A DNA stretch of 64,000 bases from Escherichia coli (GTDB taxonomy: Bacteria; Pseudomonadota; Gammaproteobacteria; Enterobacterales; Enterobacteriaceae): assembly GCF_045037415.1 (NCBI RefSeq), contig NZ_CP173438.1. One strand, written 5' to 3'. This document shows positions 22,988-62,998 of this stretch, in pieces. The translations under genes and the position numbers were made by a program. The first letter of the stretch is position 1. Each line of letters begins with the position of its first letter. The notes beneath the pieces are model-generated. The model worked only from the letters and a program-made list of their open reading frames with translations, was not told the DNA's origin and searched no databases.

Positions 22988-23302
22988 ATGTCAGCGATAC
23001 AGGGGATTGAAGGGGTTATCAGCCAGTTACAGGCTACGGCGATGAGTGCGCGTGCGCAGGAATCACTGCCGCAACCGACCATTAGTTTTGCCGGGCAGCT
23101 GCACGCCGCGCTCGATCGCATAAGCGATACACAAACAGCCGCCCGCACGCAGGCAGAAAAATTCACCCTCGGTGAACCCGGCGTGGCGCTAAACGATGTG
23201 ATGACCGATATGCAAAAAGCCTCAGTTTCTATGCAAATGGGGATTCAGGTGCGTAATAAGCTGGTGGCGGCGTATCAGGAAGTGATGTCCATGCAGGTGT
23301 AG
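22988..23302 (+). CDS. fliE: Flagellar hook-basal body protein FliE
   Basis: 104 aa starting [18 protein letters not shown]; divergent from fliF. Confidence 0.95.
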
Positions 23303-23645
23303 GTTGTGTAACCTGTTGACTATGCTTGTTTAATTATATCCGATCCCACAGCGTGGGGCATGGATGGGCAAACTCACTCAATTTCTGGTTTAAAATGGAT
23401 ACCTGATCCTGGTTGTTTTCTGCCATCCACGATCCGTAAACGCGATAACATGTTTTGTCTTCGCTTTGCTCCCAGGAAGAGTGAACTCTTTCGTTAGCCT
23501 GGGGTTCCTTCTGATCATTATTGTTCCTGCCTTTATCTCTTGCCACGCCAGAGCCCCCTGGATACACATACACCAGGATGAAAACAGTGAGTTGTGTTCA
23601 AACTGTAGTACAATTCTCTCCAGTATGAACAGGAAAGAATATGCT

Positions 23646-23978
23646 ATGAACCCTTATATTTATCTTGGTGGCGCAATACTTGCAGAGGTCATTGGTACAA
23701 CCTTAATGAAGTTTTCAGAGGGGTTTACACGGTTATGGCCCTCTGTTGGCACAATTATTTGCTATTGTGCATCATTCTGGTTATTAGCTCAGACGCTGGC
23801 TTATATACCTACAGGGATTGCTTATGCTATCTGGTCAGGAGTCGGTATCGTTCTGATTAGTTTGCTTTCCTGGGGATTTTTTGGTCAACGACTGGACCTG
23901 CCAGCTATCATAGGCATGATGTTGATTTGTGCCGGTGTGTTAGTCATTAACTTGTTGTCACGAAGTGCACCGCATTAA
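23646..23978 (+). CDS. emrE: Small multidrug resistance (SMR) efflux protein EmrE
   Basis: 110 aa, four TM helices, MNPYIYLGGAILAEVIGTTLMKFSEGF...; essential Glu in TM1. Confidence 0.9.
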   Translation: MNPYIYLGGAILAEVIGTTLMKFSEGFTRLWPSVGTIICYCASFWLLAQTLAYIPTGIAYAIWSGVGIVLISLLSWGFFGQRLDLPAIIGMMLICAGVLVINLLSRSAPH

Positions 23979-24146
23979 AAAATAATTATCCTTGAGATAA
24001 CAGGAATCTGATTTGTGCATATTATGGCTAATGTTCGGGGCACCTTTATAATTATGATTGCATTTGCGCGATCATTGCGCCTTTATGCATAATGAGATCA
24101 AGGCACATCAAATAAAATAACGATAGGTCACAACAATGAGGTTTTT

Positions 24147-24698
24147 ATGAAAAAACTTATCGTTTCAAGTGTATTGGCATTCATAACATTTTCTGCGCAG
24201 GCCGCAGCATTTCAGGTCACTAGTAATGAAATAAAAACAGGAGAGCAACTTACAACGTCTCATGTATTTTCTGGATTTGGGTGTGAAGGTGGTAATACAT
24301 CGCCCTCATTAACCTGGTCTGGTGCTCCTGAAGGCACCAAAAGCTTTGCCGTAACTGTGTATGATCCAGATGCTCCTACAGGCAGTGGATGGTGGCACTG
24401 GACTGTTGCTAATATTCCAGCAACTGTAACATATTTGCCCGCTGATGCAGGAAGACGTGATGGTACAAAACTTCCGACTGGTGCTGTTCAAGGCCGAAAT
24501 GATTTTGGTTATGCAGGATTTGGTGGAGCATGTCCTCCCAAAGGAGATAAACCCCATCATTACCAGTTTAAAGTATGGGCTCTAAAAACTGATAAAATTC
24601 CTGTGGATTCTAATTCCAGCGGAGCGTTAGTTGGTTATATGCTTAATGCCAATAAAATTGCAACCGCTGAGATAACACCAGTTTATGAGATAAAGTAG
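24147..24698 (+). CDS. ybcL: Periplasmic PEBP/RKIP-family protein YbcL
   Basis: Signal peptide MKKLIVSSVLAFITFSAQA; PEBP-like motifs (DPDAP, GWWHW). Confidence 0.85.
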   Translation: MKKLIVSSVLAFITFSAQAAAFQVTSNEIKTGEQLTTSHVFSGFGCEGGNTSPSLTWSGAPEGTKSFAVTVYDPDAPTGSGWWHWTVANIPATVTYLPADAGRRDGTKLPTGAVQGRNDFGYAGFGGACPPKGDKPHHYQFKVWALKTDKIPVDSNSSGALVGYMLNANKIATAEITPVYEIK

Positions 24699-24707
24699 GG
24701 TAAGAGT

Positions 24708-25505
24708 ATGCTGGCAAAAGATAAGACTAACCTAAAGATTGAAGAAATACGGATGCATAAACATCATGAGATTCACAGGGTTAAGCCTCTTATGCCAGCT
24801 TTATGTCGTATCCGTCAGGGAAAAAAAGTTATCAATTGGGAGACGCATAGTCTAACTGTTGATAATAATCAGATAATATTATTTCCCTGTGGATATGAAT
24901 TTTATATTGCGAATTATCCAGAAGCAGGTCTTTATCTTGCAGAAATGCTTTGTTATCCCATTGATCTAATTGAAAAGTTTCAAAAATTTTATGCGATAAC
25001 TGATCAAATTCGTAACACGACAGGTTTCTGCTTACCTCAGAACCCCGAGTTAATATATTGTTGGGAGCAACTAAAAACATCTATTTCCCGAGGCTTCTCA
25101 ACGCAAATTCAGGAACACTTAGCAATGGGCGTTCTACTTTCATTAGGAGCACATCATGTTAATTGTTTACTTTTATCAGATAGTAAACAATCATTAATAA
25201 GTCGTTGTTATAACCTAATGCTATCCGAACCTGGAACAAAATGGACAGCAAACAAGGTAGCGAGATATCTCTACATTTCTGTTTCCACATTGCATCGCCG
25301 TCTGGCAAGCGAGGGAGTAAGTTTTCAAAGTATATTGGACGACGTGAGGTTAAATAATGCGTTGTCTGCTATACAAACGACAGTAAAACCCATCAGCGAG
25401 ATTGCCAGGGAAAATGGTTACAAGTGTCCTTCTCGTTTTACTGAAAGGTTCCATAATCGTTTTAAGATAACACCAAGAGAGCTAAGAAAAGCGTCCAGAG
25501 AGTAA
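24708..25505 (+). CDS. ybcM: AraC-family transcriptional regulator YbcM
   Basis: C-terminal AraC-type HTH; follows ybcL as in the DLP12 prophage. Confidence 0.8.
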
Positions 25506-25829
25506 AAGTATTTTATGAAGGAGCAACAGCATCGATTTTTATTTTGGAAAATAAATACGGCATACTCAACCTATTGGAGTCTGAACAATCCGGTGACTTC
25601 TGCGCTAATCGGGGACGTTTCTAAGCACATATAATTGATACTATCTTCCTCCATCACAATTTCAGAAATGCACGTGTGATTTTTTTGCATCCGGCGTTTG
25701 GACTATGTGGAGCTCAAGAGTGGGAAAGTTACAAGAGGTTGAGGGGATAATTAAAGGGATGCTTATGACATTAGATATCCGGTTAGGTACGGATATCGTT
25801 GTTATTAAATCTAGTTGATACGTTAAGAT

Positions 25830-26186
25830 GCAGCTACTGACAAAATAGCCAGGACTCCACAAAACGCCTTTGTCGTAATACCTGACTGCAATATCTGGTC
25901 GATCTCGTCGCAGTAACCTACTCGATACGCCTTTGAGGCTGTTTACCAGACTGGATATCGCCAGTTTGGGAGGATAGTTAATTAACAAATGGACGTGATC
26001 TGGTCCGCCATCCATTTCAACCCGTTCAGCTTCAAAATCAGCACATACATTTGAAAAGTAAGTGCGTAGTTTTTCTGTCGCGTCATGGTCAAAAATCTGA
26101 CGTCGGTATTTAGTAACGAAGACCAGGTGAACATGCTTCAGGAAAACACAATGCCTTCCGCGTCGGATATCGGTTTCTTTTTTCAT
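25830..26186 (-). pseudogene. tnpA: IS200/IS605 Y1 transposase TnpA, C-terminal region apparently replaced
   Basis: MKKETDIRRGRHCVFLKHVHLVFVTKYRRQIF...HVHLL (HuH motif) ...GYFVSSC; the ORF then continues into unrelated sequence, so the C-terminal catalytic-Tyr region seems missing. Confidence 0.6.
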
Positions 26187-26208
26187 AGGCCAAAGTATGA
26201 TTTGGCCC

Positions 26209-26493
26209 ATGAAACGACTACAGGCATTCAAATTCCGGTTAAGACCAGGTGGTCAACAGGAGCGTGGAATGAGGCGCTTCGCAGGCGCATGTCGTTTCGT
26301 TTTCAATCGTGCTCTGGCGCTTCAGAATGAGAATCATGAGGCCGGTAATAAATACATCCCTTACGGGAAAATGGCTTCCTGGTTGGTTGAGTGGAAAAAT
26401 GCCACTGAAACGCAATGGCTTAAAGATTCGCCCTCACAGCCATTGCAACAGTCACTGAAAGACCCTGAGCGGGCTTACAAAAACTTCTTCCGG
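26209..26493 (+). pseudogene. tnpB: TnpB (IS605 OrfB), N-terminal ~95-aa fragment only
   Basis: MKRLQAFKFRLRPGGQQERGMRRFAGACRFVFNRALA... typical TnpB N-terminus; RuvC-like and Zn-finger regions absent. Confidence 0.65.
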
Positions 26494-26917
26494 CTTCGTC
26501 ACCACGCTCAAACGGTGTGCTACCTATCGCGGCTATAAAAACAGCTTGTCCATCAGCACGATAGATAAAATAAGGCTGCTTTTTGTCGCCTTCTTTTTTC
26601 CACTCAAACCAGCCATCGGCAAAACAGATTGCCCGACCATGTTGCCAGAGCGGTTTAAACATGTGACTGGTTGCGGCAGTTTCTACGCGGGCGTTAATCA
26701 GCGGCGGTTTATCCCACCATCCGGGAGCATATCCCCAGAAAACCGGATCCAGATGAAGGTGTTCATCACGTTCACTGAGCAGAAGGACTTTGGTTCCCGG
26801 CGCGACGTTGTATCTGCCAATAGGTTCGGGATCGTAGGGAATATCGCGTTCAATATCTTCCGCGAGAAACGCGAGGTAATCTTCACGCGTTTGGGATTGG
26901 GCAAAGCGTCCACACAT
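26491..26917 (-). pseudogene. yedK: SRAP-domain protein YedK (abasic-site processing), 3'-truncated at the IS junction
   Basis: N-terminus MCGRFAQSQTREDYLAFLAEDIERDIPYDPEPIGRYNVAPG... with catalytic Cys2; homology ends after about 142 residues, then a short unrelated tail. Confidence 0.7.
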
Positions 26918-27025
26918 AGAAACCTCCTGAGAGCACACTGAAAAGAATAGGAGAGAGGGCGGGTAAAATCTATGTGATAGAGAGGTAACGATGTTCCCGC
27001 TGTGGGCCACAGCGGGAATGAGGGA

Positions 27026-44430: not shown

Positions 44431-45447
44431 TCATTTTCTCTGGCCACCAACTACGGGCACTACTTTAACTTTCCGGTCATATGCTGCTGTCTGTCGCGGG
44501 TTCTTATGCCCGGAAATTGCTTGCTTCTCTTCCAGGCTGCCTTCCAGATCAGAGATACCTTTTGCTTTCAGATCATGAAATGTGAAGTCTATTTGCAGAT
44601 GAGGATATTTTTCCTGTGCTGCCGCTTTGACATCACGCCAACGAGAGTTAAAACCATCACGGGTATACTTGCCACCGGTAGTTTGATGAATCACAAACAG
44701 GCTACTGATTCCCGTTTTTAATGGCAGAGAACGAGCCAGAGCTATCGCTTTCTGCAGACGAGGCGACCAGGCTTTGATTTGCTTAACGCCGGTTTTTCCC
44801 TGACGAATGTAGATCCCGGAATCGAACAGCTGGTCTTTCTGCAATGAAAGTACATCACTCTGTCTGGCCACGCATAAGTAGGCAATCTCCATTGCTACGC
44901 GAACAACATCAGGAGACACTTCATAAACGGCCTGATATTCTTCATCCGTAATATAACGTTCGCGAGCTTTCTCTTTAAACTGTTTAACTCCCTGACAAGG
45001 ATTCCTCTGAACATAACCTCGTTCATAACCCCAACGGAATACCCGGGACATAAAGCTTTTTTCCCTGTTTGCCTGAGTTCGGCTTGATAAACCGCGTTGA
45101 TCCATATAGCGCCGAATATGTTCAGGTTTGATTTTATCCGGGTCGATCTTCCCGAAGACAGGCAGAACTTTTCCGGAATATTTTGTGTAGTCTTTCCGGG
45201 TTTCGACTGCCAAATCCATAAAATCAGGGGAGGTCATGAATTGTTCCGTGAGCGCCTGAAAAGTATTTCTTTCTTTTTCGTCACCGACCGCTTTTTCATA
45301 TGCCAGCCATACGGCTGATCGTGGTGCATCCAATGCGCACAGGCGTATCGCTTTGTTATCTTTATTCCTGAATTCGTAGGCCGCTTTGCCCTGGTAAACA
45401 CGAGGCGGCATCCAGTTATCTGCTGGGTTCTTTCTCTTTCCGGCCAT
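44431..45447 (-). CDS. int: Phage tyrosine integrase (lambda Int family)
   Basis: C-terminal catalytic region ...HDLKAKGISD...ISGHKNPRQTAAYDRK...; N-terminus MAGKRKNPADNWMPPRVY resembles the lambda Int arm-binding start; start codon ambiguous (45447 or 45477). Confidence 0.85.
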   Translation of the reverse strand: MAGKRKNPADNWMPPRVYQGKAAYEFRNKDNKAIRLCALDAPRSAVWLAYEKAVGDEKERNTFQALTEQFMTSPDFMDLAVETRKDYTKYSGKVLPVFGKIDPDKIKPEHIRRYMDQRGLSSRTQANREKSFMSRVFRWGYERGYVQRNPCQGVKQFKEKARERYITDEEYQAVYEVSPDVVRVAMEIAYLCVARQSDVLSLQKDQLFDSGIYIRQGKTGVKQIKAWSPRLQKAIALARSLPLKTGISSLFVIHQTTGGKYTRDGFNSRWRDVKAAAQEKYPHLQIDFTFHDLKAKGISDLEGSLEEKQAISGHKNPRQTAAYDRKVKVVPVVGGQRK

Positions 45448-45679
45448 TAAATATTGCTCCAAAATCAGGTTCATCATCTTTTCGCGTCGTCACCTCCTGT
45501 AAATTGCGAAATTTTATTGGGTTCATGAAATGGCCCCAGGTTGTTTTTGGGTGTCCGTCAGCCCTTTCCATGAAGAAAATTCCAGCCCGGCGAAGAGCCT
45601 CACATTGCTTTGATTTAAGTGGGCTTCCCGTCAGCTCGACCATTTCTTCTCTGGTGATTATGTCGTGATCGCTTTTCAT
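45416..45679 (-). CDS. xis: Excisionase-like DNA-binding protein (DUF4224-like)
   Basis: ITREEMVELTG...ALRRAGIFF...GHPK motif pattern; overlaps the integrase 5' end as is typical for xis-int. Confidence 0.55.
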   Translation of the reverse strand: MKSDHDIITREEMVELTGSPLKSKQCEALRRAGIFFMERADGHPKTTWGHFMNPIKFRNLQEVTTRKDDEPDFGAIFNGRKEKEPSR

Positions 45680-46071: not shown

Positions 46072-46640
46072 TAGCGTATCCTCAGTGACCGTTCGCCGCG
46101 TTCCAGATGTGCGCCTGGTACCGGGTTTAATAACTCGGCTGGTGGTGTTTCTCCACGCGCCAGTATTTCGGCGGCAACCGCCTCCGCAGATTCAATCACT
46201 TCTTTAATGGCTCGCTTGTTTGGTGTAATAACCGTTTCTACATCAACAAGTGACACGCCCTCATACTCATCCGGGATCTTATCTTTGCTATCGATAATTA
46301 CCCGGATAGTCCCCTGTGCATCAGTAAATGTGTTTTTTGCGGTTTTCAGTTTATCCAGGCCAGCAGCTTGCAGGCAGGTGAGCATATGCTTTCGAATTGC
46401 TTTTTCCTTGCCTTCAAAGGACGTCTTACGGGTTGCCAGGCGAGACATTTCTTCAGCGCAGGTATTGGCATTGCCCTGTAAATTACGGCAGATGACCATC
46501 ATGGCGTCCAGTTTGTCTCCCAGTTCTCCTTCCATGCCTTCAAGCGTGTCGGCGATCATCTCTGGCGTCAGTTCATCGGCGGTTTCTAACAGGTCAATCA
46601 GACTGGCATATTCTTTTGCAATAGCGATAGCAGTGCTCAT
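46071..46640 (-). CDS. Hypothetical prophage protein (possibly Gp157-like), immediately downstream of the SSAP gene
   Basis: 189-aa acidic helical protein; stop/start overlap with flanking genes suggests one operon. Confidence 0.55.
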   Translation of the reverse strand: MSTAIAIAKEYASLIDLLETADELTPEMIADTLEGMEGELGDKLDAMMVICRNLQGNANTCAEEMSRLATRKTSFEGKEKAIRKHMLTCLQAAGLDKLKTAKNTFTDAQGTIRVIIDSKDKIPDEYEGVSLVDVETVITPNKRAIKEVIESAEAVAAEILARGETPPAELLNPVPGAHLERGERSLRIR

Positions 46641-49204: not shown

Positions 49205-49209
49205 AGCGA

Positions 49210-50214
49210 CTCCTTGGTAATGTATACTCAGAGCCGATCAGCGAATATTGATCAGCTTCCATAGCGTCAGTGTCGTTGGTCTTTCCTCATCACAAGTTTG
49301 GTCACTTGTGATAAATCCGAATGGTTTGGTCGCCGTTCGGGGTAACTGGCCCGCCTTGTGCGGGTCTTTTGCTATCTAAAGGGTGCCGGTTACGTTTCCG
49401 GCGTCGTTATGTTTCCATTACGACCGTACAGGGCTGGTCAGGCCCGGGCTGGTCTTTCCTGTTTTGAGCTGGTCAGGCTCATGGTCAACGCTGGTCAGGC
49501 GTGGTACTTCCTCCGGTCTTTCCCTGGTGTCACGCTGCGGGTTTGGCCTCTCCTGTTGGGGACTCAGGCACAGCGATAAAACCTGGCTGTGTGAAAAAAT
49601 GGCCCATCGTGCGGACTGGGCAAAGACTAAACACAGCAAATTGATGATGGGCGCCCGGAATCGAACCGGGTAACGGGCAGGGAGTTCCCGTTAAACACCT
49701 GTTCACCACAACCGGGAGCGCACTCCGCCATTTCAAAATTTAACGACAAAGCTCAAAGTTGAGTCGATGAAGTGCGCTCTCGTGTTGTAGCCAGGACTCT
49801 TCCCTGGTGGTCACACCGTATCGCCTTGATGGTGAATCAATCGCTCATACCTGGCTGTGGCTTGCACATTCCGGCTACCTGCTATGGAGACAACGCGTTA
49901 AGGCTCCGCTTCCATCCAGACCGCTTCGACACATGTGCCATATGCCGGTGAAGTCTTTCCCTCTGTCACCGTGTTGGCGCCGACGCGCAAAATTTGGTGC
50001 CGTCTTTCCGGCTGTCAGAACGTGTTTCTGAACAACTGCCGCTGGGTAAGCGTTGTTGATGAAAGTGACTTTACAATTTGTATTTGTAATGGTCAATGTG
50101 TTTTTAAAAAATAATTTGTAGTTAGGGGCAAAAAAATATTCACTGTGTAAAGGTGTTTTTGTGTTAGGGGAAAGTTGCATGCCAGCAGCGGCTGGCCTGG
50201 AAATTTGAACTGAA
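49210..50214. repeat. About 1-kb prophage noncoding region rich in short direct/inverted repeats (GCTGGTCAGGC and GGTCTTTCC families)
   Basis: No convincing ORF on either strand; GCTGGTCAGGC at 49433, 49468, 49491; TCTTTCCCTGGTG-like units near 49516, 49797, 49953. Confidence 0.6.
50071..50125. promoter_or_regulatory. Operator-like repeats downstream of the repressor gene (OL-like)
   Basis: TTACAATTTGTATTTGTAAT and ATAATTTGTAGTTA, related to the repeats in the cI/cro intergenic region. Confidence 0.4.
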
Positions 50215-50629
50215 CTATTTTGTCTGGTTTTTGGCTTCAAGTAGTTCTTTTAGCAGTAGATCGAAGTGCTCTCTTTTTTCTTTTAGCTCATTGATTAATT
50301 TATTTTTTTCGCTCTCAGGCAGTCCTCTGAATAGTTGCAGTAGAGCCTGTTCTTGCGGGGTTAGTTCTTGATTGTAATTACCCGGGTGTAGTGTGGATTC
50401 ATCCAAATATTCCCCTTCATTCATGAAGAAAAAATGAACAGGGTATCCGGTCACTTTTGCTAGCTTGTCTAATTTATCTTTTCTTGGAGTTACCCCATTA
50501 CACCATGCCTGAACTGATTGAGCCGTAACCCCAATATGGCGAGCTAACTCAGATTGAGAACCAGCCTAAGTCTTTTAGAATCCGTTGTAGTCGGCTAGCA
50601 AAAGCCATGTTTTTCGTTTTTGTGTTCAT
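50215..50629 (-). pseudogene. cI-like XRE-family HTH repressor, disrupted by a +1 frameshift
   Basis: N-terminal stub MNTKTKNMAFASRLQRILKDLGW then stop; the HTH continues SQSELARHIGVTAQSVQAWCNGVTPRKDKL... in the next frame; deleting one T in TGGTTCTC near 50558-50562 restores a single ORF. Confidence 0.7.
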
Positions 50630-50727
50630 ACCGTAAGGATACAAGGTTTAATTGTAGGGAGCATTGCAAATATAATTTGTAATTACAGTTATTGTTTGTA
50701 ATGATGACGCGGACACAAGGAGTCCAT
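50630..50727. promoter_or_regulatory. Divergent immunity promoter/operator region (OR-like) between cI-like and cro-like genes
   Basis: Perfect 10-bp palindrome TGTAATTACA at 50678-50687 plus TTGCAA and TTTGTAAT repeats; TATAAT-like -10 element. Confidence 0.55.
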
Positions 50728-50958
50728 ATGGATAAACAACTGCAAGACAAAATTCTTTCCGTAATGAGTCAATCCGAGTTAGGGCGGCGATTAGGGAAAA
50801 AACCACAAACGGTAAGCCTCTGGTTCAAAGGACGGGTTCCCGGTGAAGAGGTTTTGCGCACATCTGAAGCTCTTGAATGGCGCGTGACCCCTCATGATCT
50901 TAGACCGGATCTTTACCCAAACCCAGATGACAGCTTGCCTAAAACGGAAGCAGCTTAA
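50728..50958 (+). CDS. Cro-like HTH regulator (YdaS-like)
   Basis: MDKQLQDKILSVMSQSELGRRLGKKPQTVSLWFKGRVP HTH; AAGGAG RBS; divergent from the repressor. Confidence 0.7.
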   Translation: MDKQLQDKILSVMSQSELGRRLGKKPQTVSLWFKGRVPGEEVLRTSEALEWRVTPHDLRPDLYPNPDDSLPKTEAA

Positions 50959-51016: not shown

Positions 51017-51493
51017 ATGGAAAACCAAGAGGAATTACAAAAAGAGATTTTGACCTGGGCGGCAAGGGCAGGGCAGGAACTCGTCACGATTGAAATCTGC
51101 CGGGCCTGGTTCAGTCAGGGACGCAATGATGAGTTGAGACTACATGAATTTGAGGACGCGGACGGCAACGTGGACTGGAGAGCCATCAACAACAATCGGC
51201 AGAAAATCTTTCGCTGGTTACGTGGCGAGACAACGGCGGCGCGCCGAAAAACTCAGGTGCTGGCCAGTGTGATGAAAGCCGTGCTACCCGCAGAACGGCG
51301 GGCACGTCTGGAGTCGCCGGGCGATCCCGTTTTGCTGGCAACGCTGGCGGCAAAAGAAGGGGTGGAAGCGATTAACGCTGTACATCTCCACTTCGCGCCA
51401 GAGTTAACTATTCAGGAAATTGACGAAGCAATAGCGGCGCTGGTAGCGACGCGAGGAGCAGTGATACGCACTGCGCAAGACCACCATGCATGA
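51017..51493 (+). CDS. Hypothetical early regulatory protein (CII/YdaT-like position)
   Basis: 158-aa ORF with AGGAG RBS following cro-like gene. Confidence 0.5.
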   Translation: MENQEELQKEILTWAARAGQELVTIEICRAWFSQGRNDELRLHEFEDADGNVDWRAINNNRQKIFRWLRGETTAARRKTQVLASVMKAVLPAERRARLESPGDPVLLATLAAKEGVEAINAVHLHFAPELTIQEIDEAIAALVATRGAVIRTAQDHHA

Positions 51494-51757: not shown

Positions 51758-52509
51758 ACATCCTCCCGTTACTTGATAGACCCATAGCCTTCCAGAGAAG
51801 TTTTATCCGTCTTGAAATGGGCGTGACTGCCGCATTGTTTCTGTCGCAGTTGACGTACTGGACAAACAGAACAACTGACGACGGCTGGGTATATAAAACC
51901 CAGGATGAGTGGGAAGAGGAAACAGGGCTTTCACGATACGAGCAGGAGGGCGCGCGCAAAAAACTACGTGGTCTCGGCGTCTTGCTGGAACGTAAACAGG
52001 GCTTGCCTGCCAGGCTGTACTACAAAATCGATAATGATGTGTTGTGCCAGCTACTTACGTCCGCATACAAGGATGCGGAAAAACCACATACAGGTGAGGG
52101 GAAAACCACCAGGCCTGTACGTGGAAAACCAACAAACATTCTTACAGAGAATACTACAGAGATTATTACTGATGGTGAATCGGCTGACGCCGACACCCAA
52201 CAACCTGCCGACCAGAGAATAAATTATCAGGTGATACTCGATACCTATCACGAGATTTTGCCAGAGATGCCACCAGTGAAAATCCTCACTGACGGCAGAA
52301 AAAAACACCTTCGCACTTTCTGGAAAAAATTCAATTTCAATGAGTCCCGTTGGCGGGCCTATCTGGAATTTATCGGTGGCAATTGTCGCTGGATGCTGGA
52401 GGACAGGCCAAATGGCAGGGGAGGATTCTGGCGGCGTAAAAATCTTGATTATCTGATTACCGAACGCTGCTATGTTTCGGTCAAGGAAGAACGCGCAAAT
52501 GATAAATAA
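51754..52509 (+). CDS. Phage replication initiation protein (O-like / replisome organiser)
   Basis: N-terminal winged-helix-like region and conserved phage C-terminus (...GGFWRRKNLDYLI); immediately precedes the helicase. Confidence 0.65.
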   Translation: MNILPLLDRPIAFQRSFIRLEMGVTAALFLSQLTYWTNRTTDDGWVYKTQDEWEEETGLSRYEQEGARKKLRGLGVLLERKQGLPARLYYKIDNDVLCQLLTSAYKDAEKPHTGEGKTTRPVRGKPTNILTENTTEIITDGESADADTQQPADQRINYQVILDTYHEILPEMPPVKILTDGRKKHLRTFWKKFNFNESRWRAYLEFIGGNCRWMLEDRPNGRGGFWRRKNLDYLITERCYVSVKEERANDK

Positions 52510-55539: not shown

Positions 55540-55763
55540 ATTGACTTAGAAAAAGTCCGGGGCTATAGTTTCCGCGCAGCCGCAAAATCGGTTGCCGGGA
55601 TTGGCGTCCCGGATATCTAAGTGACGCATAGCCGCGTTAGCGGTTTTTTTATGTGTTAGGCACGGCCACATTCGCATTATGGTGGGCTGTGTGGGGGCTT
55701 CTGTGGAAGCGCCGGGTTCACTTAGCCGGTTACGCCAACCCTGCACAGCTCACCACCAGATGA

Positions 55764-56600
55764 TTGGCGTCGCTGGTGGTGATGAAAAAAACACTAAGTG
55801 AGGCCACTGCGATGACAGTCCAAATATCTGCGGAATCCCTTTCTCCGCTACATCATAACCAACTTCCCGTCATCACTACTGAATTGCTTGCCAGTTTGTA
55901 TGGCACGGAAGTAAATGGTATCCAGCAAAACTTCAAGCGCAACATCGCCAGATTTGTCGTAGGAAAGCATTTTTTTAAGCTGGAAGGTAATGAATTACGC
56001 GACTTCAAAAACAGACTGACAGATAGTCAGTCAGTTGCTAAACATACCCGATCCCTCATTCTCTGGACAGAACGCGGCGCAGCTCGCCATGCCAAAATGC
56101 TGGAAACAGAACAGGCCTGGGAAGTTTTCGAAAAGCTGGAAGATTGTTATTTTAGCCAGCGTCCAGAGAGGCGGAGTACAACTACCGATGACCGTACTCC
56201 CTTGCGTGATGCCGTTAATATACTGGTCGGCAAGAAAGGCATGATGTATCCCGATGCCTACACCATGATTCATCAACGCTTCGCCGTCTCTCACATAGAA
56301 CAACTGTCACAGACGCAAATGTTAGAGGCGATTGAATACATCCACTGCCTGCTACTCGATGAAAATCACCCAACCATTCCAGATTTTTCTTTTATCACCA
56401 CTATCAAAAATGGAAAAGTGACCGGGATGCGCCATGTTGCCAAAGGCGAACATCTGATGACCTTTGACGCTTTCAAAGAGATCGCTGAGCGGGCAGGGTA
56501 TCTGGTGATCCACAGCGACAATCTGCGAAGTATGACACTGGATAAATTGATGGTAATGGGGAAAAAGTCGGCTATATCCGTTGCTAATTCAGCATTTTGA
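55764..56600 (+). CDS. ORF6N/KilA-N-domain protein (antirepressor-like)
   Basis: N-terminal ...LPVITTELLASLYGTEVNGIQQNFKRNIARFVVGKHFFKLEGNELRDF... pattern; start codon uncertain. Confidence 0.6.
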   Translation: MASLVVMKKTLSEATAMTVQISAESLSPLHHNQLPVITTELLASLYGTEVNGIQQNFKRNIARFVVGKHFFKLEGNELRDFKNRLTDSQSVAKHTRSLILWTERGAARHAKMLETEQAWEVFEKLEDCYFSQRPERRSTTTDDRTPLRDAVNILVGKKGMMYPDAYTMIHQRFAVSHIEQLSQTQMLEAIEYIHCLLLDENHPTIPDFSFITTIKNGKVTGMRHVAKGEHLMTFDAFKEIAERAGYLVIHSDNLRSMTLDKLMVMGKKSAISVANSAF

Positions 56601-56628: not shown

Positions 56629-56696
56629 TTGCGCTTAAAAAGGTATTTGACCACGACCAGCACGAGACCGAATACCTCTGTCAAAGTACCGCCCAT
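56629..56696. repeat. Direct repeat copy 1 (68 bp): 3'-end remnant of a membrane-protein gene
   Basis: 63 of 68 positions identical to 60051-60118; minus strand encodes a 23-codon remnant MGGTLTEVFGLVLVVVKYLFKRK preceded by a stop. Confidence 0.85.
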
Positions 56697-60046: not shown

Positions 60047-60652
60047 TTACTTGCGTTTAAAAAGGTATTTTGTCACGACCAGCACGAGGCCGAATACCTC
60101 TGTCAAAGTACCGCCCATGTACAACTGTAGTGTTAAATCCTCAAATTCCAGCTTACCTGCGCCGTCGGCAATAAATACACCATTCATTATCAGAAGTTGG
60201 AAAGCAAGGATAATCAGGAACCATTTCCCGTATCGTTTTTTTAGAGCGATTTCTGCTTCAAAATCTTTGTTGTTGAGTTGTTTGCGCTCATGCTCGGTAT
60301 CAAGTGAATTCACCTGTTTCACAGATGTGAACTCGGTCAAGATTTTACTCTCAGTACGGGTGACTTGTTGAGAGGGTGTAGCAGTTGGAATTCTTTTGCT
60401 AGACGCAGCTACAGCCATTTTGCGAGCTTCGGCAGCTCTTTTTCTGGCTATTCCGCGAATACGGACAGCCGTTTTTTTGGGGGCGTGCGAAACCTTTGGC
60501 TGAGGTGAAGCTTCGTCAGGAGACTGAACCGGAGTTTCATCGTCCTCCGGCTCAACCTCTTCTGCTAACTGACGGTGTAGGTTGAGGGAATCCTTCAGTC
60601 TGCGTGCTACTTCCTGTTTGAAACGGCTGTTAAAATCGTCATCCGATGGCAT
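60047..60652 (-). CDS. Hypothetical membrane protein: charged, disordered N-terminal region plus C-terminal two-TM hairpin
   Basis: WFLIILAFQLLIMNGVFIA and GGTLTEVFGLVLVVTKYLF hydrophobic segments; start 10 nt after the upstream stop. Confidence 0.65.
   Translation of the reverse strand: MPSDDDFNSRFKQEVARRLKDSLNLHRQLAEEVEPEDDETPVQSPDEASPQPKVSHAPKKTAVRIRGIARKRAAEARKMAVAASSKRIPTATPSQQVTRTESKILTEFTSVKQVNSLDTEHERKQLNNKDFEAEIALKKRYGKWFLIILAFQLLIMNGVFIADGAGKLEFEDLTLQLYMGGTLTEVFGLVLVVTKYLFKRK
60051..60118. repeat. Direct repeat copy 2 (68 bp): authentic 3' end of the 201-aa membrane-protein gene
   Basis: Encodes C-terminus ...QLYMGGTLTEVFGLVLVVTKYLFKRK of ORF 60047-60652. Confidence 0.85.
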
Positions 60653-60661
60653 TTTAAAGCG

Positions 60662-61150
60662 TTACCCCAACCTCAAGTTCTTTAAACGATAAGTCATCGC
60701 ATCGTCAGATACGCCAAAATAATGCGCCATTATATAACTTGGTTGACCGTCAGCGTGCAGTTTTCTGACCTCATCTACCGGCATCAGAAGTTCTGCTGCG
60801 AACTTGTTTGCAAAAATTTCATCAGGATGCGTTCCGGCGCTTGCGGTTTCGCCACGTAAATCAACGTACTCATATTCATCGCTATGCGATGCTTGCCGGG
60901 CGATGTAATGCCCCAACTCATGCCCACATGAAAAACGTTGACGAACTTTGTTGTCATCACTGTTTAGAAAGATCGCTGGATCTTGATCTTTTTGTTTAAT
61001 CAGTGCGCCAGAAACTTTCCCAGGAAGATCGGTAATAAAAACATCTAATCCCATGTCGTGAGCAATTTTCGCTGGATCAACAGGGAAACCACGCCCGCAC
61101 CAGAACGTGTCCAGCACTCGCCGGGCGTGCTCTCTTGGGTTGGTAGCCAT
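60662..61150 (-). CDS. ImmA/IrrE-family Zn-metallopeptidase (COG2856-like)
   Basis: HEXXH motif in SCGHELGHYIA; 162 aa; GGAGG RBS. Confidence 0.75.
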   Translation of the reverse strand: MATNPREHARRVLDTFWCGRGFPVDPAKIAHDMGLDVFITDLPGKVSGALIKQKDQDPAIFLNSDDNKVRQRFSCGHELGHYIARQASHSDEYEYVDLRGETASAGTHPDEIFANKFAAELLMPVDEVRKLHADGQPSYIMAHYFGVSDDAMTYRLKNLRLG

Positions 61151-62667: not shown

Positions 62668-62818
62668 TGACCATAAACGGTTTAATCCCCTATAAAACCG
62701 TTTAATAAAATTCACGACGTGAATATAATTGTTCATTATTCCCTCATTGTATTTGGCGTTATGACAAATGCCATAAAATACTGTATAAATATACAGGTTG
62801 TGGCATTGGGGGGAAGAC

Positions 62819-62998
62819 ATGAATATTCAAGAATCTATAGGCGAACTACCGGAAACATGCCGGGCTGTTATCAAGCGTAAGGACGGACACATCGTTGGTG
62901 TGCGTGTTCTGACCGATGATGAGCGGATTGCCAGCCTGATGGCGTTTCTCGAGTTGGCAGAAATAGCTGGATATACTATTACACCCCCTGACGCGTAA
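62819..62998 (+). CDS. Hypothetical small prophage protein
   Basis: 59 aa from MNIQESIGELPE. Confidence 0.4.
   Translation: MNIQESIGELPETCRAVIKRKDGHIVGVRVLTDDERIASLMAFLELAEIAGYTITPPDA

Follow-up and report, generated by a model that had tools for sequence, protein, structure and literature searches.

The prophage immunity repressor gene at 50215..50629 on the minus strand of the window, the 64,000-nucleotide stretch of E. coli DNA analysed here, is split by a +1 nt insertion, and the extra base is very probably an assembly error at a methylation motif rather than the mark of a dead repressor. This interpretation is based on the coincidence of the insertion with the motif, its recurrence in three independent assemblies, and the near-universal presence of the unshifted allele in other genomes. 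The underlying gene is an ordinary prophage repressor that is already annotated. A first-pass annotation of the same DNA had set three explanations side by side: a genuinely inactivated repressor, a sequencing error in a run of T residues, and ribosomal slippage.

The split reading frame and its alleles

The splitting of the gene is evident both from its reading frames and from alignment with homologues. Reading-frame analysis identifies an N-terminal stub of 26 codons followed by a TGA stop (50549..50629, minus strand), which starts at the ATG at 50629-50627, encodes MNTKTKNMAFASRLQRILKDLGWFSI, and ends with the TGA at 50551-50549. The C-terminal frame (50215..50565, minus strand), which encodes the remaining part of the helix-turn-helix (HTH) and a helical C-terminal domain, stays open between 50565 and the stop at 50217-50215, with the translation (AG)SQSELARHIGVTAQSVQAWCNGV...KNQTK, also given as SQSELARHIGVTAQSVQAWCNGVTPRKDKLDKLAKVTGYPVHFFFMNEGEY...KNQTK. 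This frame has no usable start, with neither an ATG nor a GTG upstream of the HTH recognition helix. Its first ATG or GTG is the GTG at 50454, which rules out internal re-initiation as a way of producing a functional HTH. The stub and the C-terminal open reading frame lacking an ATG, both described in the first-pass annotation, are therefore present on the minus strand as reported.

On the minus strand the junction reads TGGTTCTC at 50563-50556, and removing one T from it produces an uninterrupted protein of 137 amino acids, or of 130 amino acids from the ATG at 50608, the start that PGAP uses for the protein WP_000853106.1. The earlier proposal that the HTH becomes continuous once a single T is removed is borne out by this repaired protein: a Pfam HTH_3 match at residues 14-65 (E = 7.9e-12) spans the junction, and the N-terminal DNA-binding domain of the 434 repressor aligns with the repaired HTH across it (E = 4.5e-5). 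Comparison with intact homologues, which the first-pass annotation had called for, was made by alignment and gives exactly one extra base in the window relative to the intact alleles. The unshifted allele has a single T at the site (TGGTCTC) and reads ...GGC TGG TCT CAA TCT GAG..., and the supposed T-run is not a homopolymer at all.

A search of 5,426 complete E. coli genomes finds the locus in 436, which match the 661 bp around the gene at 95-100% identity. Searching with a 54-nt probe able to seed only across the insertion, we found the extra base in just three of these genomes, A1.S1.126 (Poland), UID2309220015 (Thailand), and Esc14, with the remaining 433 lacking it. The window is E. coli ST131 DNA, and the ST131 references EC958 and JJ1886, which are among the strains that match it, are not among the insertion carriers. 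In most genomes with the locus, PGAP annotates the intact 130-aa "helix-turn-helix domain-containing protein" WP_000853106.1, and the unshifted protein cluster is found on >1,000 contigs; in the public carriers, PGAP calls only a 63-aa "hypothetical protein" remnant (WP_015675078.1).

Close relatives place the insertion on more than one background. Over 64 kb, strain Ecol_AZ146 differs from the window by the extra base and two SNPs, one private to each. At position 50123 the window has a private T, with G in all 436 matching complete genomes. The insertion is found with both alleles of a SNP at 46310, T in the window and A1.S1.126 and C in UID2309220015 and Esc14, and is therefore not a simple clonal marker; strains with the intact allele also occur on both SNP backgrounds. 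Among 12 contigs retrieved through truncated-repressor ORF products, none has this insertion. These contigs show loss of a C at CC 50593-50594, gain or loss of a T in the T6 run at 50429-50434, a GAACC form of the site, or N-gaps (two scaffolds). GAACC at the repressor site, a -1 error, is the reading of two assemblies, and the GAACC, GGAACC, and GAAACC forms of this site are absent from the RefSeq complete genomes. The assemblies and metagenome contigs with other repressor frameshifts may include some real mutations and some low-coverage errors.

The Eco31I motif and the origin of the extra base

The frameshift falls exactly on a methylation motif. The unshifted allele is GAGACC on the plus strand, or GGTCTC on the coding strand, and the window has GAGAACC at 50556..50562 (plus strand), which is the same hexamer with one extra A/T. 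In the ST131 strain EC958, 100% of GAGACC sites carry m6A, as GAG(m6A)CC, and GGT(m5C)TC is predicted on the opposite strand; methylation is by M1/M2.EcoMI, and EcoMI is identical to Eco31I (PMC4659465). The inserted A:T pair falls at the methylated A and C of this Eco31I/EcoMI motif, that is, at its methylated A:T/C:G position. An EcoP1-type motif, AGACC, was also considered and was dropped because the ST131 methylome gives GAGACC, the Eco31I/EcoMI motif (PMC4659465). Eco31I hexamers occur only three times in the window, accounting for 18 of 64,000 bases (0.028%). The second site, GGTCTC at 51970..51975 (plus strand), and the third, GAGACC at 56664..56669 (plus strand), are both normal in the window, with the third reading GGAACC in the public assembly Esc14.

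Sequence differences in the three public carriers concentrate on the same motif. With Ecol_AZ146 as the reference, and over a span of 104 kb that consists of the window's 64 kb and the next 40 kb, the carriers show 36 difference events. Fifteen of the 36 lie on 11 Eco31I sites that make up 0.085% of the positions compared (binomial p = 4e-37), and each carrier genome is altered at 4 to 7 of the 11. It is not credible that 15 real mutations would have fallen on 11 restriction sites in strains that are otherwise a handful of SNPs apart. The altered sites take the forms GAGACC>GAGAACC, GGTCTC>GGTTCTC, GAGACC>GGAACC, GAGACC>GAAACC, and GGTCTC>GGTTTC. A +1 change like that in the window (GAGACC>GAGAACC or GGTCTC>GGTTCTC) is found at three other sites in the carriers, and as a result the PGAP label "frameshifted" is attached to both the major capsid protein and the S49 head protease. 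Homopolymer indels in G7 and A8 runs account for several of the other differences, and an indel at 50902 in the cro gene of A1.S1.126 adjoins GATC and TAGACC, with no true Eco31I site there.

The RefSeq "complete" ST131 assemblies NZ_OZ369269.1, NZ_CM142692.1, and NZ_CP146588.1 contain systematic mis-calls at Eco31I sites, and two of them have homopolymer indels as well. In these three assemblies PGAP reports frameshifts in the major capsid protein, S49 peptidase, tail sheath, and endolysin (TIGR02594), and the repressor is split.

Methylation-induced consensus errors have been documented for nanopore sequencing (PMC11610573), and the combination of motif-locked errors and homopolymer indels in the carriers is consistent with errors of this type from native-DNA nanopore reads. 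Like the published errors, those described here fall on a strain-specific methylated motif, are repeated at many of its copies in independent assemblies, and occur alongside homopolymer indels. The published errors are mostly purine/purine and pyrimidine/pyrimidine substitutions, whereas here the motif also gives single-base insertions and deletions, which result in false frameshifts (PMC11610573). The motif-specific errors also serve as indirect evidence for EcoMI in the three carrier genomes.

In the explanation that we favour, the true sequence would be the unshifted allele, encoding the 130/137-aa repressor. Modified bases distort the nanopore signal, and GGTCTC/GAGACC has m6A in one strand and, as predicted, m5C in its complement; the consensus at the motif comes out as GAGAACC, GGAACC, GAAACC, or GAACC. 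By analogy with the public carriers, the window's assembly would have been made from native-DNA nanopore reads, with the same error present. Of the earlier suggestion of a sequencing error, the error itself is thus favoured by the evidence, with the Eco31I/EcoMI methylation motif rather than a T-run as its cause.

Some observations count against an assembly error. Elsewhere in the window, both remaining Eco31I sites and every homopolymer are clean, so that an assembly from nanopore reads would have to be well polished, with only this site failing. A single leftover error here is plausible because the repressor site is wrong in all three of the error-prone assemblies. In addition, the private G>T change at 50123 is only 437 bp from the frameshift, and the chance of two private changes falling so close together is ~1.4%. 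This closeness hints weakly at genuine selection acting on the immunity region, and it is heavily outweighed by the coincidence with the motif.

If the insertion were instead real, the repressor would be inactivated and the prophage would be defective, deregulated, or Cro-locked ("anti-immune"), with the SNP at 50123 possibly compensating for the loss. The sequence as given is indeed frameshifted, and different frameshifts of the repressor gene occur in other contigs; those in the T6 run and at CC make a damaged repressor in nature not impossible, although some may themselves be errors. The 50123 SNP lies in an OL-like repeat at 50107-50124 that mirrors the OR repeat at 50668-50685, and the T brings the left repeat nearer to the OR copy (TAGTGA becomes TAGTTA, compared with TAATTA). 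The related Rac repressor RacR matters for cell viability (PMC5700377, PMC5700373), and compensation would therefore be expected if the repressor were lost. However, a genuine mutation would need to have struck one of the three Eco31I hexamers in 64 kb and to have copied exactly the error form found at other such sites in three error-laden assemblies. The prophage also appears to be complete in relatives, where replication, Q, lysis, head, and tail genes are all present, and a null repressor should therefore be lethal or strongly counter-selected. No other disabling change is found in the 20 kb of prophage within the window. It would be more interesting if a pandemic clone had lost the immunity of a complete-looking prophage, but the evidence points the other way: with the unshifted allele near-universal and the site on a methylation motif, the genuinely inactivated repressor of the first-pass annotation becomes a minority reading that we regard as improbable.

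In a more elaborate form of this idea, the insertion would be recurrent and the Eco31I site in the repressor gene genuinely prone to mutation, perhaps as a result of damage and repair while the restriction site is doubly methylated or, for a time, unmethylated. Loss of the repressor would then have arisen repeatedly among ST131 sublineages, which would owe their survival to changes in the operators, 50123 G>T being one example, and the prophage would be left Cro-locked. We consider this scenario very improbable, more so than a simple mutation.

Decoding of the frameshift by recoding, in which a programmed +1 ribosomal frameshift or transcriptional slippage would give the full-length repressor, is effectively refuted. 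Its one point in favour is that a +1 shift anywhere before the TGA at 50551-50549 would restore the protein. The site has no slippery motif, and none of UUA, GGC, UGG, UUC, UCA, and AUC re-pairs in the +1 frame. No run in GGC UGG UUC UCA AUC UGA exceeds two, and TT is much shorter than polymerase slippage requires. The shifted arrangement also lacks conservation, the insertion being absent from 433 of the 436 complete genomes with the locus and from the protein cluster on >1,000 contigs. The frameshift site of prfB is CUU UGA C with an upstream Shine-Dalgarno stimulator; from a reading of the sequence, AUC UGA G is unlike this site and the upstream stimulator is absent.

An assembly error at the methylation motif, which remains our preferred explanation, calls for caution with other genomes. 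Strains with Eco31I-type methylation, including ST131, yield false frameshifts at GGTCTC/GAGACC in long-read assemblies. In the public carriers these false frameshifts split the repressor, major capsid protein, and head protease, and would be read as a "defective prophage" or as a "pseudogene".

The prophage and its structured RNA candidate

The prophage is lambdoid and complete-looking. It is integrated beside a tRNA-Gly/Cys/Leu cluster, next to tRNA-Leu and downstream of pgsA, with its integrase encoded at 44431-45477 (minus strand) and a leftward operon that contains genes for a 738-aa exonuclease-family protein and a 106-aa ORF. A Cro/YdaS-like HTH gene (50728..50958, plus strand; phrog_35, with Pfam YdaS_toxin on homologues) is divergent from the repressor and is followed by a YdaT family/CII-like gene (51017..51493, plus strand; phrog_163, CII-like activator; see also PMC9986795), and then, further rightward, by an O-like replication gene and DnaB. 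In the annotation of relatives, Q, holins, endolysin, terminase, a lambda-like head, and a contractile tail lie beyond the window. A putative OR-like operator region (50662..50703, no strand assigned) lies between the repressor gene and the cro-like gene, in the form of a near-palindrome whose half-sites are of the TTGTAATTACA type. On the other side of the repressor, a sigma-70-like promoter (TTGACC, 17 nt, TAAAGT) together with copies of the OR repeat (50068..50124, minus strand) would constitute a PL/OL-like region, which includes the private SNP at 50123.

An unannotated gap of ~1 kb (49205-50214) separates the repressor from the leftward genes and contains a conserved structured-RNA candidate at 49791-49947 (minus strand), which lies on the strand of PL transcription, where it would belong to the leader of the PL-like operon. 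At least 120 IMG/VR contigs contain an exact copy of its invariant 22-mer, GGTAGCCGGAATGTGCAAGCCA, which has no match in the literature searched. Support for seven helices comes from aligning 29 representatives with pairwise identities of <80%: compensatory double changes occur at 14 of 31 predicted pairs, and 96.5% of cells are paired, compared with 32-42% when the partners are slid. The covariation score of 0.308, compared with 0.04-0.08 in the slid controls, was reached by none of 500 shuffles, and the candidate has no match in Rfam 15 even at E <= 10. In 69 of 122 loci the gene just upstream of the element, and in the same orientation, encodes an HTH repressor. SPN1S-like phages, about 30-38 of them, have the element between terL and portal, in antisense orientation to these two genes. 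One idea, suggested by the lack of an N-like ORF, is that the element could be a cis-acting leader or antitermination RNA of the early-left operon.

Other features were observed along the window. An anti-repressor gene (phrog_4792, ORF6N/Ant) at 55812-56600 is preceded by C4/isrK-type antisense RNA elements. Rfam matches above the gathering score at 55563-55760 (plus strand) comprise c4-a1b1 (55563-55615), isrK (55576-55650), and C4 antisense RNA (55675-55760), and together these elements form a P1/P7 immI-like antisense-RNA control module before the ORF6N/Ant gene. A near-consensus LexA box, TACTGTATAAATATACAGGT, in which CTGT-N8-ACAG is perfect, is located at 62779-62798 (plus strand), 20 nt upstream of a 59-aa ORF at 62819-62998 (plus strand). 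The product of this ORF has a phrog_340 match in common with the C-terminal part of Ant (residues 213-254) and is a candidate for a small Gifsy-type antirepressor under SOS control. Between the replication and Q regions, the gene for an ImmA/IrrE-family metallopeptidase (60662-61150, minus strand) is followed by the gene for a 201-aa phrog_5346 protein, and the two (60047-61150) may be a moron or defence-type pair. The segment at ~23100-26920, from fliE to yedF, contains emrE, ybcL, ybcM, an IS200/IS605 transposase, and truncated HTH and SOS-response-peptidase genes in the annotation of relatives, and looks like a small decayed mobile-element remnant.

The repressor family and related systems

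The repaired repressor belongs by its sequence with the Gifsy/DicA-type repressors, which are without a cleavage domain, and not with the lambda cI type. The repressors of Gifsy-1 and Gifsy-2 are 33% identical to it over 93% of its length (E = 5e-11, tblastn). The NCBIfam DicA model (NF007257) aligns from end to end, with residues 6-136 on model positions 2-132 of 135, and scores 72.6 bits against a curated cutoff of 101, so that by NCBI's rule the protein is not a member of the DicA family. A megablast comparison of the immunity region with a phage collection gave no match, and only distant protein matches were found.

In its genomic position, its role, and its N-terminal HTH, the repressor resembles lambda cI, 434, and LexA-type repressors. 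Unlike the autocleavable repressors of the lambda cI/LexA type, whose C-terminal Peptidase_S24 domain has a Ser/Lys dyad and an Ala-Gly cleavage site, it gives no Peptidase_S24 match in a Pfam scan, and at 130-137 aa it is too short to hold such a domain. The description of the gene as "cI-like" in the first-pass annotation is consequently apt for position and role and wrong for family, given the missing S24 autocleavage domain and the likeness to Gifsy.

The arrangement around the repressor also resembles that of DicA in the Qin prophage and RacR-YdaS-YdaT in the Rac prophage of E. coli K-12, in which the repressor is divergent from a YdaS-like Cro that is followed by a YdaT/CII-like gene. 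Unlike the DicA and RacR modules, which lie in cryptic remnants, the module described here is in a complete-looking prophage.

The Gifsy repressors GfoR and GtgR are not cleaved on induction, and are inactivated instead by small antirepressors under LexA control (Lemire et al. 2011, PMC3121763). The repressor described here is like GfoR and GtgR in its size of ~130-140 aa, its N-terminal HTH, and its lack of an S24 peptidase domain, although the likeness is distant. The prophage has a LexA-box-like site upstream of a small ORF, of 59 aa, outside the immunity region, and it also encodes the larger Ant protein. The Ant gene, the C4/isrK elements, and the LexA-like box with its 59-aa ORF are consistent with a repressor of the Gifsy-type non-cleavable class, in which antirepressor binding displaces the repressor from DNA, and by analogy with Gifsy the 59-aa ORF is a candidate antirepressor acting on a repressor that may itself be non-cleavable.
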